From contig CAZELK010000001.1 of NCBI GenBank assembly GCA_964513145.1, positions 1 to 64,000 on the forward strand: a stretch of 64,000 bases of DNA, written 5' to 3'. Below the pieces are notes generated by a model. That model was given only the letters and a program-made list of their open reading frames with translations. It was not told the DNA's origin and searched no databases. This DNA is from Candidatus Woesearchaeota archaeon (GTDB lineage Archaea; Nanobdellota; Nanobdellia; SCGC-AAA011-G17; JACPIM01). Position 1 is the first letter of the stretch; each line of letters begins with the position of its first letter. Of the stretch, positions 31,217 through 41,237 are shown in pieces. The translations under genes and the position numbers were made by a program.

Positions 31217-33622
31217 TTATTCCTTACTTATCTTGGCTATATTTGCTACAGAATCGTTTTCATTTAATCTGATTAAATGTACGCCAGAGGTATTTCTACC
31301 AATTATGTTTATATCTTTTACATTTAATCTAATTATCTGACCTTTTTTAGTTATAATAATAAGTTCGTCATTATCATTTACAATTGAAGTAGAAACTACA
31401 AAACTATTTTTTTCACTAATTTTAATATTTCTGACGCCTTTTCCGCCTCTTCTAATTAGAGCGTATTCTTCCAGACTGGTTCTTTTTCCAAATCCTTTTT
31501 CAGTAACTGTCAGCAAAGTATAACCATGAATTACAATCTCAAGACCAATTAATTCATCTTTTTCCTGCAGTTTTATTCCTCTTACACCTGTTGAATTTCT
31601 CCCTACTTCATTTATGTCTTTTTCATGGAACCTAATTGCTTTTCCTAATTTTGAAGTTAAAATTAATTCAGAATTATTATCTGTTAAAATAACTTTTACT
31701 ACTTCATCATTTTCACGCAAATTTATTGCTTTAATTCCGGATTTTCTTATATTTGAGTATTCCATTAAACTTGTTTTTTTAATTACTCCTTTTTTAGTTG
31801 AGAATACAAGATATTGGTTTTCTTTGTAATCTTTAATTGATAAAATTGTGTTTACTTTTTCATTTTCTTCCAAGTTTAGCAAATTAACAATTGCTTTTCC
31901 TTTTGCTTGTCTTGATACTTCTGGAATCTCATAACCTTTTAGCCAGAAGACTTTTCCTTTATTTGTGAAAAACATTAAAGTGTTTAGGTTGCTTGTCACA
32001 ATCATGTTTTTCACTATATCTTCTTCATCTTTTGTTGATGTAGCCTGAATACCTTTTCCACCTCTTCCTTGCTGTTTATATGTTGTTAATGGAACCTGCT
32101 TAATATAACCAGAATATGTTAAAGTTACAACAATATTTTCTTCTTTTATCAGATCTTCCCGTACTATAGCATCAACTTCCTCTTCAACAATTTCTGTTCT
32201 TCTTTTGTCTGAGTATTTTTCTTTTAATTCTGTTAATTCCTGTCTTATTATTTCTATTATTTTTATTTCTGAAGCTAGAATTGATCTTAATTCTTCGATT
32301 AATTTCTTTGTTTTTTCCAATTCTTCCAAAACTTTTTTAGTTTCTAAATTTGTCAATCTTTGAAGACGCATTTCTAGAATTGCTATGCTTTGTTTTTCTG
32401 TTAAATTAAAATTAGCAGATAAATTAGTTTTAGCTGTCTCTGCATTTTCAGACTGCTTGATTAATTCAATGACTTTGTCTATATTTGACAAGGCAATCTG
32501 TAAACCTTCCAGAATATGGGCTTTCTCTTCAGCTTTGTTTAAATCGAATTTAGTTCTTTTTACAATAACTTGTTTTCTATGTAAAATGTAATTCTCAATT
32601 ATTTCTTTTAAATTTAAGACCCTGGGCTCATTATTTACTAGTGCGAGCATAATTACACCAAAAGTATTTTGCAATCCAGAATGCTTGTATAATTGATTTA
32701 AAATTAATTTTGGATCTTCATCTTTTTTAAGATGAATTATAACCCTTATACCAGTCTTGTCTGTTTCATCTCTTATATCTTTTATTCCTTCTACAACTCC
32801 TTCTTTAACTAAATTAGCTATACCTTCTATCAACAAGGATTTATTTAACTGATAAGGGATTTCTTTTATTATTATTTTATTGTCTTCAATTTCTGTTTTG
32901 GCTCTTACAATTAATTTTCCCTTTCCAGTCTTGTAATAATCTTCAACCCCTTTTTTTCCATTAATTATAGCGCCAGTTGGAAAATCCGGACCTTTAATTA
33001 TTTTCATTAATTCAGTAACATCAGCGCCAGGATTTTCTAATATTAATAATGTACCATTAATAATTTCTGATACATTATGGGGCGGAATATTTGTTGCCAT
33101 TCCGACTGCAATTCCTGTTGAACCGTTAATTAATAAGTTAGGTAATTTAGCAGGCAATACAACTGGTTCTTTTAAATTTCCATCAAAATTTGGTATAAAA
33201 TCAACTGTTTCTTTTTCAATATCTAATAACATTTCTTCAGCTAAAGCATCTAATTTTGCCTCTGTATATCTGTAAGCTGCTGGCGGGTCTCCATCAATTG
33301 AACCCCAGTTACCTTGCCCTACTATTAATTTATATCTTAAATTCCATTCCTGTCCTAATCTAACCAACGCATCATAAACAGAACTATCACCATGCGGGTG
33401 GTATTTTTTTAAAACATCTCCAACAATACCAGCGCATTTTGTGAATCTCTTATTGTGCTGCAGCCCCATTTCGTGCATTGCATAAAGAATTCTTCTATGA
33501 ACTGGCTTCAATCCGTCTTTTACATCAGGCAAGGCTCTTCCAATAATAACTGACATAGAATAATCCAAGTAAGCTTCTTTTAGTTGATCTTCAACAATTG
33601 ACTGCTTTATTTCCTGGCTCAT
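31217..33622 (-). CDS. gyrA: DNA gyrase subunit A
   Basis: DGLKPVHRR, HPHGD, AAYRYTE, GyrA-box QGRGGKG. Confidence 0.97.
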   Translation of the reverse strand: MSQEIKQSIVEDQLKEAYLDYSMSVIIGRALPDVKDGLKPVHRRILYAMHEMGLQHNKRFTKCAGIVGDVLKKYHPHGDSSVYDALVRLGQEWNLRYKLIVGQGNWGSIDGDPPAAYRYTEAKLDALAEEMLLDIEKETVDFIPNFDGNLKEPVVLPAKLPNLLINGSTGIAVGMATNIPPHNVSEIINGTLLILENPGADVTELMKIIKGPDFPTGAIINGKKGVEDYYKTGKGKLIVRAKTEIEDNKIIIKEIPYQLNKSLLIEGIANLVKEGVVEGIKDIRDETDKTGIRVIIHLKKDEDPKLILNQLYKHSGLQNTFGVIMLALVNNEPRVLNLKEIIENYILHRKQVIVKRTKFDLNKAEEKAHILEGLQIALSNIDKVIELIKQSENAETAKTNLSANFNLTEKQSIAILEMRLQRLTNLETKKVLEELEKTKKLIEELRSILASEIKIIEIIRQELTELKEKYSDKRRTEIVEEEVDAIVREDLIKEENIVVTLTYSGYIKQVPLTTYKQQGRGGKGIQATSTKDEEDIVKNMIVTSNLNTLMFFTNKGKVFWLKGYEIPEVSRQAKGKAIVNLLNLEENEKVNTILSIKDYKENQYLVFSTKKGVIKKTSLMEYSNIRKSGIKAINLRENDEVVKVILTDNNSELILTSKLGKAIRFHEKDINEVGRNSTGVRGIKLQEKDELIGLEIVIHGYTLLTVTEKGFGKRTSLEEYALIRRGGKGVRNIKISEKNSFVVSTSIVNDNDELIIITKKGQIIRLNVKDINIIGRNTSGVHLIRLNENDSVANIAKISKE

Positions 33623-35575
<1,953 letters not shown>

Positions 35576-35680
35576 CTATTTGAAAAAATAGTTCAAACTT
35601 TAAATACTTTTCTAAGGCTAAAAATGTATTTAATTGTATTTATAGGGCTTATAGAGTCATAGTACACTTCTAAAAATAGT

Positions 35681-35958
35681 GTAGGCATCCCAGTTCAGAG
35701 CACACGAAGACAATAGCTACCCTGGTTTTTCCTTTGTTCTGCTACCCTAACGACACCAAATCATATGCTTAAGGCTGCTTTGAACAAGCTTAGCTTTCTG
35801 TTCCCAGCCTGACCTGGTTCACATATGAAATGACCCGCCAGGACAAAACATCATTGTACAAACCAAGACTATTATCTTAGTATACTCTTATCCGGGCCTT
35901 CAGTTTCCCATAAAGTCCGTTTGGAAAATGCAGAGGACTAGCCTGCTACCTAGCCTAC
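35681..35958 (-). ncRNA. ffs: SRP RNA with an 18-nt BHB-type intron at 35780-35797
   Basis: Terminal GUAGGC/GCCUAC helix. Long helix 5 (agaguauac/gugugcucu, aagauaauagu/gcuauugucuu, cuugguuu/aaaccagg). GAACCAGGUCAGG...AGCAGCCUUAAG helix-8 flanks. TTTATAAA TATA about 23-30 nt upstream. Confidence 0.88.
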
Positions 35959-35991
35959 GCAATAACTATTAAGTATATAGTTTATAAAGTT

Positions 35992-36531
35992 TTATTTTAA
36001 TATTATTTCATTATAAATATTTGAAGTTCTTTTTTCTAAGTCTTCTGTATCCAAATATAGTCTACAGCTTTCTAAAAACTTAACTGCCTCTGAAAGATGG
36101 CAGTGCCAGAAATATTCCTGTCTTTTAATTTGATCTGCTTTTACTTTAATTGCCCCCAGCATACGACGATCTTCATTTTTTAATTCAGGAATATGCGGTT
36201 CTGAAAAACTTAAAATATCTTCAAGCAAGATTATTGCAGCTCTTTTTAATTCATAATCAAAAGTTGAATTTAAATTAACTATTTTCTGATATTTTGTATG
36301 TACTTTATTTAATTCTTTTAATTGTGTTTCAGTTATATATGATTTTTTCTTAATATACTTTAAAGTTTTTTTAGTTTGATTTTGTAAATTATACAAGTGA
36401 TTATTTGTTGTAAGCCTTGATTCAAAAGGACTTATTTTTTCATCATGCAATATTCTGCTGAATTCTTTTAAGAATTTACTGCATTTATGCTTTTCAAGTC
36501 TTTTTTGCATACTATCAATACATAATGGCAT
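35992..36531 (-). CDS. Hypothetical protein
   Basis: ORF only; start uncertain. Confidence 0.5.
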   Translation of the reverse strand: MPLCIDSMQKRLEKHKCSKFLKEFSRILHDEKISPFESRLTTNNHLYNLQNQTKKTLKYIKKKSYITETQLKELNKVHTKYQKIVNLNSTFDYELKRAAIILLEDILSFSEPHIPELKNEDRRMLGAIKVKADQIKRQEYFWHCHLSEAVKFLESCRLYLDTEDLEKRTSNIYNEIILK

Positions 36532-36593
36532 TATTTAAGACATTAGTAAGATTTATATATATGTATGTATGTACATATTTACAGGTGATCAAG

Positions 36594-37139
36594 ATGAAGA
36601 GCAAAGTTTGGAGAAGCGGGAACAGCTGGGTAATTACAATACCTTCTGAAATAGCTGGAAAACTTAATTTAATGGAAAGAAAATTAATTGATTTTGATAT
36701 CAAGGATGTTTTTGAAGAAACAGAAAAACTATTTGACAATATGTTTGGGAGTGATAATATGCCAGGTATAGAACCTCTAAAAAAATTAGGAAGAAATTTA
36801 CAATTCAGACAACCTTTAATGGATTTAAAGGAGAATGAAAGAGAATTTATTGCAAATATCGAAATACCTGGTGTTGACAAAAAAGATATTCAATTAAAAA
36901 TTACAGACAATGTTTTAGAAATTAAAGTTGAAAAGAAATCAGAAGTTAATATTTCAAATGAAGAAGAAGGACTTGTAAGATCAGAAAGAGTTTACAATGG
37001 ATTTTATAGATCAATGAGTTTGCCTTCTAAAGTGATTTCTGAAAAAGCCAAAGCTTCTTATAGAAATGGTGTTTTAGAAGTCAGGCTCCCAAAGACTATG
37101 AATGAGAAAAGGAATTCCAATAACATACCTATTGAATGA
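36594..37139 (+). CDS. AbrB-like N-terminus fused to an Hsp20 alpha-crystallin domain
   Basis: KVWRSGNSWVITIP, then EIPGVDKKDI...GFYRSMSLP...ASYRNGVLEVRLPK. AGGTGA RBS. Confidence 0.85.
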   Translation: MKSKVWRSGNSWVITIPSEIAGKLNLMERKLIDFDIKDVFEETEKLFDNMFGSDNMPGIEPLKKLGRNLQFRQPLMDLKENEREFIANIEIPGVDKKDIQLKITDNVLEIKVEKKSEVNISNEEEGLVRSERVYNGFYRSMSLPSKVISEKAKASYRNGVLEVRLPKTMNEKRNSNNIPIE

Positions 37140-37158
37140 TTTTTGTAAAATTTGACAT

Positions 37159-37695
37159 ATGGAAAACGAACATAGTGAAAAAAAGCACAAAGACAAAAAG
37201 AAATTAGAGCAAGACATAATCAACTTATCTAATGATCTCCGTGAAAAATCAAGTCTTGCTGAAGATAGATTAAACCAATTAAGATATCTTCAAGCAGACT
37301 TTGATAATTATAGAAAGAAATTTGACAAGGAAAAAGAAGACATCATAAAACTGGCAAATGAAAATTTAGTGAAAGAGCTTTTGGTTATAGCTGATGATTT
37401 TGAGAGATGTGTAAAAGAAACTCATGATGACAAGATAAAAAAAGGATTAGAATTAGTTTATAAAAATTTTTTAAAAATTTTGGAGAAATACGGACTAAAG
37501 CAAATAGAATCAATAGGGAAAAAATTTGACCCTAATTATCACGAAGTTTTAATGAAAGAAAATTCTGATAAAGACGGGGTTATTTTGGATGAGATTCAAA
37601 AGGGATTCATGTTAAAAAATAAAGTTATCAGGACTTCAAAAGTAAAAATTGGTGAAAAACAAAATTTAGAAAAGAATAATGTTATGGGGGAATAA
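37159..37695 (+). CDS. grpE: GrpE
   Basis: ADFDNYRK, FDPNYHE, KGF..K.KVIR. Confidence 0.95.
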   Translation: MENEHSEKKHKDKKKLEQDIINLSNDLREKSSLAEDRLNQLRYLQADFDNYRKKFDKEKEDIIKLANENLVKELLVIADDFERCVKETHDDKIKKGLELVYKNFLKILEKYGLKQIESIGKKFDPNYHEVLMKENSDKDGVILDEIQKGFMLKNKVIRTSKVKIGEKQNLEKNNVMGE

Positions 37696-37698
37696 AAA

Positions 37699-39558
37699 AT
37701 GAGTAAAGAGAAAATAATTGGAATAGATTTAGGTACGACAAATTCAGAAGCAGCAGTTATGCTGGGCGGGAAACCTACAATAGTTCCATCTGCTGAAGGT
37801 GCAACTGTTGCTGGGAAAATGTTTCCTTCTGTTGTTGCGTTTACAAAAGATGGGCAGTTGTTAGTTGGAGAACCTGCGAGGAGACAGGCAGTAAGCAATC
37901 CTGATGGAACTGTTATGGCTGCAAAAAGAAAAATTGGCGCAGACTATAAATTTAAAATTTATGGCAAGGAATACACACCACAACAAATCTCGGCTTATAT
38001 ATTACAAAAAATAAAGAAAGATGCTGAAGCTTTTTTAGGCGAGGAAATAAAAAAGGTTGTAATTACTGTTCCAGCTTATTTTAATGACAATCAAAGAACA
38101 GCAACAAAAGATGCCGGAAAAATTGCCGGCCTGGATGTTATAAGACTAGTTAATGAACCTACTGCAGCTTCAATGGCTTATGGTTTAGACAAAGAAGGGC
38201 AAGAGCAAAAAATACTAGTTTTTGATTTGGGCGGAGGAACTTTAGATGTAACTATTATGGAATTTGGGGATGGAACATTTACTGTTTTGTCTACTTCAGG
38301 AGATACACAATTAGGCGGAACTGATATGGACAAGGCTGTGATTGACTGGATTGTTAGTGAATTTAAAAAACAAGAAAATGTTGATTTAACAAAGGATAAA
38401 GCAGCTGTACAAAGAGTCAGGGATGCAGCAGAAAAAGCAAAAATAGAATTGAGTACTGTTTTAGAAACTGAAATTAATTTGCCATATATTACTGCAGACA
38501 AAGAAGGACCAAAACATTTAGTTTTAAAATTATCAAGAGCAAAGTTAGAACAATTACTTCAGCCCATAATTGACAGATGCATACACCCTGTTGAGCAGGC
38601 AATGAAGGATGCTAATTTAACTAAAGATGACATTAAAAAAGTAATTTTAGTCGGCGGACCAACAAGAATGCCAGTTGTCCAAAAATTTATTGAAGAAAAG
38701 GTAGGAAAAAAACTTGAACATGGCGTAGATCCAATGGAATGTGTAGCTGCTGGTGCTGCAATTCAAGGAGCTATTCTTTCAGGAGATGTAAAGGATTTAG
38801 TCTTGCTTGATGTTACACCCTTAACTTTAGGAATAGAAACTTTAGGCAGTGTTATGACGCCTTTAATTGAAAGGAATACTACAATTCCAACCAAAAAAAG
38901 CCAGGTATTTTCTACTGCTGCTGATTTTCAAACTGCAGTAACTGTACATGTTTTACAAGGAGAAAGACCTATAGCAAAGGATAATACAAGTCTGGGTCAA
39001 TTTAATTTAATTGGAGTTCCTCCAGCACCAAGGGGAGTGCCCCAGATTGAAGTTACTTTTGATATAGATGCTTCTGGAATTTTAAATGTACATGCAAAGG
39101 ACTTGGGTACTGGAAAAGAACAGAAGATGACAATTACAGCATCAACAAAATTAAATGACAAAGAAGTTGAAAGAATGGTTAAAGAGGCTAAAGAACATGA
39201 GGAAGAAGACAAAAAAAGAAAAGAAGAAATAGAAATCAAAAACAATGCTGACTCCCTGATTTATACTACAGAAAAAACACTTTCTGATTTGGGAGACAAA
39301 TTAGATAAGCAACATAAAGAAAAAATTGAAGGTGCTTTGAAAACTGCAAAAGATGCTTTAGCTACTAATGACCTGGAAAAAATAAAAAAAGAAACTGACA
39401 ATTTACAAAAAATTGTGCAGGAAGCCGGGGCTTCTATTTATGCTGAGGCAATGAAACAAGGGGCACAACAAGAAGAAACAAAAGAAAATACAAAGACAAA
39501 AAACAAGAAAGACAAAGTAGTAGATGCTGATTTCAAAGTTGAAGATGATAACAAATAA
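37699..39558 (+). CDS. dnaK: DnaK
   Basis: [23 protein letters not shown]. Confidence 0.98.
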
Positions 39559-40177
39559 ACAACATGGGGCTATAACAAAATCAGTACGACTTGGATTACA
39601 AATTCAAAAAGACTATCCCCAAGTAGCTGGAAGCCATATATCTGGAAATTCTTTAACAGAAATAACTAAAAATTTTTGTTTTCAAATTATTTATGGAACT
39701 GATTTTAAAATAGCTAGGGAAGCAGTTAGAAAAGCTTTATCAGGATATAATGGAAATTTAAGAGATTTTCCAGAAAGATACTCTGGTTTAATAAACCAGG
39801 ACGAACTAAAAAAACTAGAAAAAATCCATAAACTTGATGGAGCAAAAAAGGCTTTAGAAAATAGACTTGGAATTTGTGGTTTGACAATTGAAGAAAGAAA
39901 AATTTATTCTAGAGAGGCTGTAATAGCACAAGGAAAAACTCCATGGATTGAAAGAAAAGAAACAGAAAATTTCAGTAATTTATCAGAAATAGAATTCGCC
40001 TATATGCTTTCACAGTCTTCTGAATTTTTATTAATGCGGGGAACAAATAAAGGAAAAGTTAATTTGGAGAAAATAGCTAGCTTATTAAACCAATTTTATC
40101 ATTATGATAGAAAAATAAGAACAGCTGATAATTTGTCTGTAAAGTTAGTTCGGTTTAGAAAAATGAAAAATGGCTAA
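39545..40177 (+). CDS. Hypothetical protein between dnaK and dnaJ
   Basis: Overlaps both neighbours. Confidence 0.65.
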
Positions 40178-41237
40178 AAAAGATTATTATGATATATTAG
40201 GGATTAAAAAGGATGCAAGCCAAGAAGAGATTAAAAAAGCATTCAGGCAATTAGCTAAAAAATGGCACCCGGATGTTCATTCTGACAAAAAACAAGCTGA
40301 AGAGAAATTTAAAGAAATTAACGAGGCTTTTCAAGTTTTAAATGACAAACAGAAAAGGGCACAATATGATCAATTTGGTCATGCTGATTTTAATGGACAA
40401 AATTATGGACAAGGTTTTGATTTCAATGATATTTTTAAAGGATTTGATGATTTTTTTGGCGGATTTTCAGGTTTTGGGAACAGAAAAAGAGAGCAAGAAA
40501 AAGAGTACAGATATGATGTAGAAATTTCTTTAGAAGATGCTTTTAATGGTGTTATGAAAATTGTTGAAGTACCTATATTCAGTAAATGCACACCCTGTAA
40601 TGGAACTGGTGCAGAACCTGGCTTTTTAAAAGAATGTGCTGAATGTGATGGAACTGGGAAATCAAGGAAAGTAAGAAGAACTCCTTTTGGACAAATAGTG
40701 AGTGTCAGCACATGCCATACTTGTAGCGGTACTGGAAAAATAATTTCTAAACCTTGTGAGAAATGCAAGGGAGAAGGAAAAATTAAAAGAAACAAGAAAG
40801 TTGAAGTTCAAATTCCAAGGGGTGTTGATAATGAACAATATTTAAGCATAAATCTTGAAGATAATTCTATATTATATGTTGTTATAAGCATAAAAAAGCA
40901 CGAAATATTTGACAGAGATGAAAGCAATTTATTTTGCAAGACAACTATAGATTTACTAACTGCTATTTTGGGCGGAGAAATTGAAGTACCTACTATTATA
41001 GGGAAAGGCAAATTAAAAATTCCTTCTGGAACACAAAGTCATACTATTTTTAGACTTAAAGGACAGGGCATGCCGAATGTCAATACAAATAAAAGAGGCG
41101 ACCAATTAGTCAAGATTGTAGTTGATATACCTGAGAAATTAAATAAAAAACAAGAAAACTTACTTAAAGAGATATTTGCTGAAACAAAAACAGAAACTAA
41201 AAAAGGATTTTTTGAAAAATTAAAGGAATTTGTATAA
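40170..41237 (+). CDS. dnaJ: DnaJ
   Basis: HPD motif, four CxxCxGxG repeats. Confidence 0.97.
   Translation: MAKKDYYDILGIKKDASQEEIKKAFRQLAKKWHPDVHSDKKQAEEKFKEINEAFQVLNDKQKRAQYDQFGHADFNGQNYGQGFDFNDIFKGFDDFFGGFSGFGNRKREQEKEYRYDVEISLEDAFNGVMKIVEVPIFSKCTPCNGTGAEPGFLKECAECDGTGKSRKVRRTPFGQIVSVSTCHTCSGTGKIISKPCEKCKGEGKIKRNKKVEVQIPRGVDNEQYLSINLEDNSILYVVISIKKHEIFDRDESNLFCKTTIDLLTAILGGEIEVPTIIGKGKLKIPSGTQSHTIFRLKGQGMPNVNTNKRGDQLVKIVVDIPEKLNKKQENLLKEIFAETKTETKKGFFEKLKEFV

Follow-up and report, generated by a model that had tools for sequence, protein, structure and literature searches.

Does the SRP RNA gene of a Woesearchaeota-like (DPANN) archaeon carry an intron inside helix 8, and is this intron of the kind excised by the tRNA splicing machinery? 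The question was raised by a sequence-only reading of a 64,000-nt stretch of DNA (the window), which had noted 18 extra nucleotides interrupting helix 8 at 35780-35797 on the minus strand, had interpreted them as a bulge-helix-bulge (BHB) intron, and had correctly guessed a DPANN host. The genome (G000) comprises 978 kb in 18 contigs, with 29% G+C and an estimated completeness of 98.8%. To our knowledge, SRP RNA is universal, essential and single-copy, and among its functional elements helix 8 is the most conserved. The known splicing substrates of archaea are tRNA, rRNA and a few mRNAs. A full-text literature search found no published report of an intron inside SRP RNA, in agreement with the sequence-only reading, which knew of no internal intron in helix 8.

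The SRP RNA gene is the sole above-threshold Rfam match of the whole window: RF01854 aligns to 35958-35681 on the minus strand over model positions 1-256, with 62.2 bits (gathering score, 60) and a 19-nt insertion opposite a single model nucleotide in the helix-8 loop. Together with a profile of relatives, this match delimits a gene at 35681..35958 (-), encoding a precursor of 278 nt and a predicted mature RNA of 260 nt without helix 6. A whole-genome profile search returned 35681-35958 only, with no second SRP locus, and no open reading frame of at least 80 aa overlaps the locus. The Archaea_SRP model RF01857 has no match in this genome, which is not evidence against an SRP RNA, because the SRP RNAs of this order are without helix 6, as alignments of relatives indicate for the order as a whole. 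For the window locus and its relatives (L002-L031), the Bacteria_large_SRP model outscores Archaea_SRP. Read directly, the minus strand runs ...GGUCAGGCUGGGAACAG-AAAGCUAAGCUUGUUCAA-AGCAGCCUUAAG..., as had been transcribed before, and the minus-strand read of 35500-36100 contains ...GAACCAGGUCAGGCUGGGAACAG AAAGCUAAGCUUGUUCAA AGCAGCCUUAAGC....

Upstream of the gene, a TATA-like box, TTTATAAA (35981..35988, -), is centred ~26 nt before the first SRP RNA nucleotide, and from the spacing rule for archaeal promoters we infer that it may be the promoter element of this gene. An oligo-T run lies just past the 3’ end (35672..35676, -) and is likely, by inference, an archaeal terminator. SRP54 is encoded in the genome (M domain, 110 bits, within a 450-aa frame). 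An SRP19 domain could not be detected in the assembly, which is 98.8% complete. Directly downstream of the SRP RNA gene, and on the same strand, lie genes for bacterial-type DNA gyrase A and B (31217-35539, -), adjoined by eIF2-gamma; a grpE-dnaK-dnaJ cluster with an Hsp20 gene occupies 36525-41237 (+).

The extra sequence in helix 8 measures exactly 18 nt (35797-35780). GUCAGG and AGCAGC are spaced 34 nt apart in this gene versus 16 nt in all 29 relatives of the same order from which SRP RNAs were recovered for comparison, and the insert is missing from 30 relatives, including two members of the same genus (G001 and G002), whose SRP genes are 260 nt long. Deleting 35797-35780 yields GGUCAGGCUGGGAACAGAGCAGCC, letter for letter the helix 8 of three intron-less relatives (G024, G037 and G039), and a helix 8 with a GNAR tetraloop and the AGG/AGCA loop is present only once the 18 nt are removed. 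Scored with and without the insert against a sequence profile of the 29 relatives, the spliced form reaches 166.0 bits and the unspliced form 153.5 (a gain of 12.5 bits), with the 18 nt set apart as one insert block.

These comparisons, together with the Rfam alignment, divide the gene into a first exon (35798..35958, -) holding the Alu domain, the 5’ strand of helix 5 and helix 8 up to CUG-GGAA-CAG, an 18-nt intron A-AAGC-UAA-GCUU-GUUC-AA (35780..35797, -), and a second exon (35681..35779, -) that starts with AGCAGCC, the 3’ side of the SRP54-binding loops, and continues with the 3’ strand of helix 5. The predicted spliced junction is GGGAACAG|AGCAGCC, and the flanks in this organism read ...CAUAUGUGAACCAGGUCAGG... 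and ...CCUUAAGCAUAUGAUUUGG.... The insert is present with 0 differences and no indels in Logan contigs of four runs, three of them from a 2020 groundwater study that is a possible source of this DNA and one from an independent 2017 study. Its presence in contigs of two independent studies rules out an assembly artefact, which the sequence-only reading had named as an outcome that would refute it. No convincing further copies of the 18-mer (up to 3 mismatches) or of its 11-nt core were found in the genome, and hence nothing obvious assigns the intron to a repeat family.

We then considered how the insert and its flanks may fold. From 5’ to 3’ the layout is GGCUG, an unpaired G, GAAC, AG|A, AAGC-UAA-GCUU, GUUC, AA|A, an unpaired G and CAGCC, where the bars mark cut sites fixed by comparison with relatives. 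The central helix pairs GAAC of the exon (35800..35803, -), that is, three nucleotides of the GGAA tetraloop and the following C, with GUUC of the intron (35782..35785, -). On either side of it, on opposite strands, lie two 3-nt bulges: the 5’ bulge A-G|A (35797..35799, -; predicted cut 35798/35797) and the 3’ bulge A-A|A (35779..35781, -; predicted cut 35780/35779). Beyond the bulges, the intron forms an inner hairpin h’, AAGC-UAA-GCUU (35786..35796, -), and the exons form an outer helix h from GGCUG (35805..35809, -) and CAGCC (35773..35777, -). All of the pairings that had been claimed are present, including the single G.G mismatch, in which G35804 opposes G35778; it abuts the 3’ bulge and leaves 5 of 6 outer pairs. 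The defining elements of a BHB are therefore met, namely two 3-nt bulges on opposite strands with a 4-bp helix between them, and flanking helices h (exon-exon) and h’ (intron), with the mismatch as a caveat. Cutting after the second nucleotide of each bulge and joining the ends restores the mature helix 8, GGUCAGGCUGGGAACAGAGCAGCC, at the sequence level, as predicted. The insert and its flanks thus constitute a near-canonical BHB.

Such an arrangement rarely arises by chance. When random 18-mers of genome composition were placed at the helix-8 site, a BHB restoring the mature sequence formed in 1.3e-3 of 2 million cases if the rules admitted G.U pairs and set a minimum of 3 bp for the inner helix, and in 4.3e-5 of random 18-mers if the observed 4+4 bp had to be Watson-Crick; shuffles of the insert itself formed such a BHB in 1.8e-4 of trials. 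The strict BHB is not the minimum free energy (MFE) structure of the isolated region. In a 70-nt context it folds at -17.1 versus -21.3 kcal/mol for the MFE, 4.2 kcal/mol above it; the MFE fold retains the central helix and the 3-nt 5’ bulge, and its 3’ bulge becomes a 2x2 internal loop.

A survey of related SRP genes for the insert and for covarying pairs, which the sequence-only reading had suggested, revealed at least 12 further distinct SRP genes with an insert of 17-34 nt at the same site, all of them recovered with patterns blind to structure. This same-site family, with the covariation of its inner hairpin, is the main new evidence of the present analysis. The first pattern specified exon bases only (GGTCAGGNTGGGAACAN, a gap of 10-40, and AGCAGCC) and returned 17 loci from public metagenome contigs, of which 10 are SRP genes with a same-site insert of 17-34 nt (8 distinct sequences and two repeats). 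Five loci were without insert and were set aside, having merely a second AGCAGCC downstream (L050, L058, L059, L061 and L062), and two were unrelated matches in which no SRP helix 8 could be restored (L049 and L060). A second structure-blind pattern, applied to the full set of 240 species genomes in the order, found inserts in the genome under study (family f1), in G021 and G048 (f7), and in G136 and G350 (f9); a third, for a GGAAU context, found one in G369 (f11). Insert-bearing species thus span four families of the order, and inserts come from five genomes besides the one studied here, two of them repeating metagenome sequences. Two more candidates (G293 and G356) were set aside for lack of SRP context.

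Every one of these inserts ends in GUUC or GUUU followed by AA (AU once), an ending that none of the three patterns demanded. A separate pattern for genome contigs did require a GUUY-type ending, and every sequence that it recovered was already known from the structure-blind patterns. The 3’ bulge, A-A/U|A, is kept in 12 of 12 same-site introns. The inner hairpins themselves differ (AAGC/GCUU, GAA/UUC, GGC/GCC, GGAU/AUCC, AAG/CUU, AGAUAAA/UUUGUCU, ACAAG/CUUGU and others) within inserts of 17-34 nt that always have 1 nt before the hairpin, 4 pairing nt, and 2 nt after these.

In an alignment of the 12 sequences, the specified BHB pairs 94.9% of cells, versus 20-41% after shifting the partners by 1-3 columns. 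Double changes that preserve pairing occur in 18 cells, compared with 6.3 +/- 1.9 in shuffles (0 of 500 shuffles reach 18), and the covariation score is 0.310 versus 0.122. All four pairs of the inner helix show compensatory double changes. The central helix is paired in 100% of the 12 introns and varies only between G-C and G.U and between C-G and U.G, without any double change. RNAalifold predicts the outer and inner helices from this alignment and does not draw the 4-bp central helix. Since the search patterns themselves dictated the exon columns, these hold no independent information, and the outer helix, being invariant in the set, carries no covariation information.

Two of the loci deserve separate description. 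L079 (G369:C28:9231-9285, -) has a same-site intron of 33 nt in the exon context CUA-GGAA-UAG, with a central helix GAAU/GUUC that includes a U.G pair and an inner helix AAACAA/UUGUUU. On a contig of 55% G+C, L044:161-470 (G206:C137) is an archaeal SRP RNA lacking helix 6 (RF01857, 163 bits) with a 36-nt helix-8 insert bounded by a GGCCCG direct repeat; with a 4-bp GGCC/GGCC helix, the two candidate cuts both fall 2 nt downstream, the helices on its flanks are weak, and the loop of the product is GAAG or GGAA depending on the register.

Could the insert simply be retained, as an expansion segment that is never removed and that lengthens helix 8 beneath a variable hairpin cap? The MFE fold of the precursor is indeed one continuous extended stem, a conserved and covarying hairpin would also be expected of a structural expansion, and no RNA evidence excludes it. 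However, the GNAR tetraloop is hidden in such a fold and the AGG/AGCA nucleotides that are bound by SRP54 change register, and close relatives lack the insert with base precision. Moreover, the inserts range from 17 to 34 nt and yet keep the spacing of 1, 4 and 2 nt, which points to a cutting rule and not to a packing rule. We consider retention unlikely.

Excision as a BHB intron would proceed as follows. In the primary transcript, GAAC, taken from the GGAA tetraloop and the next C, would pair with GUUC near the 3’ end of the insert, flanked by the 4-bp intron hairpin and by the exon-exon helix GGCUG/CAGCC. With these helices on either side of a 4-bp helix, both exon-intron junctions come to lie in 3-nt bulges on opposite strands. 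The splicing endonuclease EndA, encoded by a single gene, would cut after the second nucleotide of each bulge, the ligase RtcB would then join the exons, and the mature 260-nt RNA is predicted to refold into the canonical helix 8, with CUG-GGAA-CAG atop the AGG/AGCA loop that forms the SRP54 binding site.

Both enzymes that this scheme needs are encoded by the host. EndA is encoded by one gene (G000:C7:33755-34318, -). The protein has 188 aa, an N-terminal and a catalytic domain (PF01974 and PF02778 matches) and the catalytic Y/H/K context; it most closely matches M. jannaschii EndA (1a79, 1.5e-34) and the catalytic subunit of N. equitans, and tblastn found no paralogue in the genome. In length and sequence it resembles the homotetrameric M. 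jannaschii enzyme. Homotetrameric EndAs are regarded as strict on BHB shape, and the caveats to the BHB reading are that the strict BHB is not the MFE, that a G.G mismatch adjoins the 3’ bulge, and that the EndA resembles the strict type. RtcB is encoded with a score of 473 bits. Its Pfam match (G000:C6:75368-78150, +) falls into two pieces separated by ~1.4 kb, model positions 1-44 and 49-426. An open frame of 879 aa contains the larger piece, and the match of the small one includes a single TAG. An intein likely splits the match.

Other genes of the same genome contain inserts of comparable form. Its tRNA-Arg(UCG) has a canonical 37/38 intron (CUUC, GG|U ... GGAG, AU|A, then the anticodon stem), and the geometry of the SRP BHB, including its 5’ bulge, is that of this intron. 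With its intron search, ARAGORN reported only 15 tRNA genes, 9 of them with introns, although the genome is 98.8% complete; the majority of tRNA genes probably escape detection because their introns are multiple or unusually positioned. In cbf5, a 19-nt BHB mini-intron (C3:20387-20405, +), C-GAAA-UAAU-UUUC-GAGG-AU, matches the layout of the SRP intron, with 1 nt, a 4-bp hairpin, a 4-nt helix strand and 2 nt, and its removal restores the Cbf5 catalytic motif GHSGTLDPGVTG. In EF-2, a 38-nt insert (C1:214066-214103, -) with a BHB-like fold and 3 of 4 central pairs splits the G1 motif AHID|HGK and shifts the frame; the sequence past HGK (CVHPNS...) looks like the start of an intein. Both genes regain their conserved motifs only upon removal of the BHB-like inserts.

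The genome has ~14 loci (for example C11:25421-25439, C2:34449-34467 and C9:27474-27558) with a hairpin repeat, AAGCTTTT-N3-AAAAGCTT, after which AAGCAAAA often follows, and several copies lie within tRNA genes as intron cores. We do not claim that the SRP intron is a homologue of this repeat, because the sequence shared is too short; AAGC/GCUU has only the stem ends in common with it.

Combining these results, we conclude, with a probability of roughly 85%, that the single SRP RNA gene contains an 18-nt archaeal tRNA-type (BHB) intron that is excised by EndA and joined by RtcB. The earlier proposal of a BHB intron is upheld by the absence of the insert from close relatives, by the geometry shared with the 37/38 tRNA intron, by the presence of EndA and RtcB, and by the same-site family with its covariation. 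Cleavage, ligation and the non-function of the unspliced RNA remain inferences without RNA data. Very probably, then, SRP works in this organism only after tRNA-splicing enzymes have cut and rejoined its RNA, although excision has not been observed in RNA.

As to the inferred ligation, the available evidence does not separate ligated from unligated exons. As in fragmented rRNAs, the RNA might be cut without rejoining, and the two fragments be held together by the long helix 5, through which the exons are extensively paired. We regard this as very unlikely: RtcB is encoded and is needed anyway for many tRNA introns, an open helix-8 tip would be without a closed tetraloop, and in the BHB-processed SRP RNA of Thermoproteus the ends at the helix-8 tip are ligated (PMC4731332). 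An artefact or dead gene (an assembly error, a chimeric contig, or a pseudogene accompanied by another working copy) has no support, was considered only because the genome is metagenome-assembled, and is scarcely credible given the identical insert in Logan contigs of four runs from two studies, the lack of a second SRP locus in a 98.8%-complete genome, and the 12 other distinct genes with same-site inserts.

The intron-bearing genes tend to escape standard annotation. In covariance-model scans for SRP RNA, 4 of the 5 intron-bearing genomes gave no match, and Rfam genome scans miss the intron-bearing SRP genes of G021, G048, G136 and G286-G289. Covariance-model surveys of the order and class had left the present genome as the sole carrier, an apparent uniqueness that we reject as misleading, because the model misses intron-bearing genes and the sequence patterns found others. 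In practical terms, SRP RNA will be wrongly annotated as missing in such genomes.

How did the intron come to its present distribution? In a tree of the exons, with introns removed, the gene studied here groups with a metagenome locus (L051) at 85% exon identity (support 98/92). The intron of L051 is 19 nt long and has a different hairpin (GAA/UUC), with the central helix and bulges as in the gene studied here. This pair is sister to the intron-less genes of G001 and G002. The tree requires between 3 (well-supported branches only) and 7 changes of the trait, implying that the intron was gained or lost several times, with base precision. An RNA of 260 nt is unable to resolve gain from loss, or a single origin. 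The sequence-only reading had raised the possibility of a regulatory checkpoint; the patchy distribution and variable length are no less compatible with an intron that is tolerated, selfish or neutral.

A wider view, towards which we lean without firm conviction, is that the helix-8 introns form a heritable tRNA-type family in Woesearchaeota-like archaea (four families of one order, and several metagenomes), that they represent the ‘simple BHB intron’ stage postulated as ancestral to permuted circular SRP genes, that all co-translational targeting in their hosts needs the tRNA-splicing enzymes, and that the intron may spread or persist by docking onto the invariant GGAA-C.

Among known systems, the BHB introns of archaeal pre-tRNAs, which in Thermoproteales and DPANN can be multiple and non-canonically placed, share with the SRP intron the hBHBh’ geometry, the position of the (here predicted) cut behind the second nucleotide of the bulge, short length, patchy occurrence and a host with EndA and RtcB. 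The SRP intron differs in that the host is not a tRNA and in that the central helix draws on the SRP GNAR tetraloop instead of the anticodon loop. A BHB intron is also said to occur in the cbf5 pre-mRNA of Crenarchaeota (Watanabe and Yoshinari and co-workers). Like that intron, the SRP intron would be a non-tRNA substrate of EndA in an essential gene; unlike it, its host is a structural and not a protein-coding RNA, and the intron directly competes with the mature fold. In archaeal 16S and 23S rRNA, EndA recognises BHBs in a large non-coding RNA and RtcB carries out ligation, the same sequence of events that we predict for SRP RNA. In contrast, most of the rRNA BHBs lie on either side of the mature rRNA and lead to circular intermediates, whereas the SRP insert is internal; and rRNA introns are usually long and often contain homing endonuclease genes, whereas the SRP intron has 18 nt and is non-coding. 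The substrate range of the archaeal splicing machinery is thereby widened to an internal intron in another structural RNA, and the 13 inserts of the comparative set offer natural variants for the recognition rules of EndA. If the helix-8 intron is spliced as inferred, protein targeting is made to depend on EndA and RtcB.

The nearest precedent for SRP RNA itself is found in Thermoproteus tenax and T. uzoniensis, in which the tRNA splicing endonuclease acts on a BHB to mature a circularly permuted SRP RNA (Plagens et al. 2015, eLife, PMC4731332). There, leader and trailer form the BHB; after its cleavage, ligation of the ends at the helix-8 tip closes the RNA into a circle (PMC4731332). Processing at a BHB by the tRNA splicing endonuclease is common to both, though only predicted here. 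Unlike the Thermoproteus gene, the present one is collinear, as judged from the order of model positions 1-256 and from 29 relatives, and its BHB encloses an internal 18-nt intron. It is thus not a permuted, circularised SRP RNA of the Thermoproteus type, and a linear spliced RNA is to be expected instead of a circle. The hosts differ as well, Thermoproteus being a crenarchaeon with a heterotetrameric enzyme and the present host a DPANN archaeon with a single EndA gene that resembles the homotetrameric one. Plagens et al. suggested that the permuted SRP RNA descended from a variant with simple BHB introns (PMC4731332). The SRP gene described here matches this postulated precursor state, and is a naturally occurring case of the intermediate from which permuted SRP RNA genes have been proposed to originate (PMC4731332).
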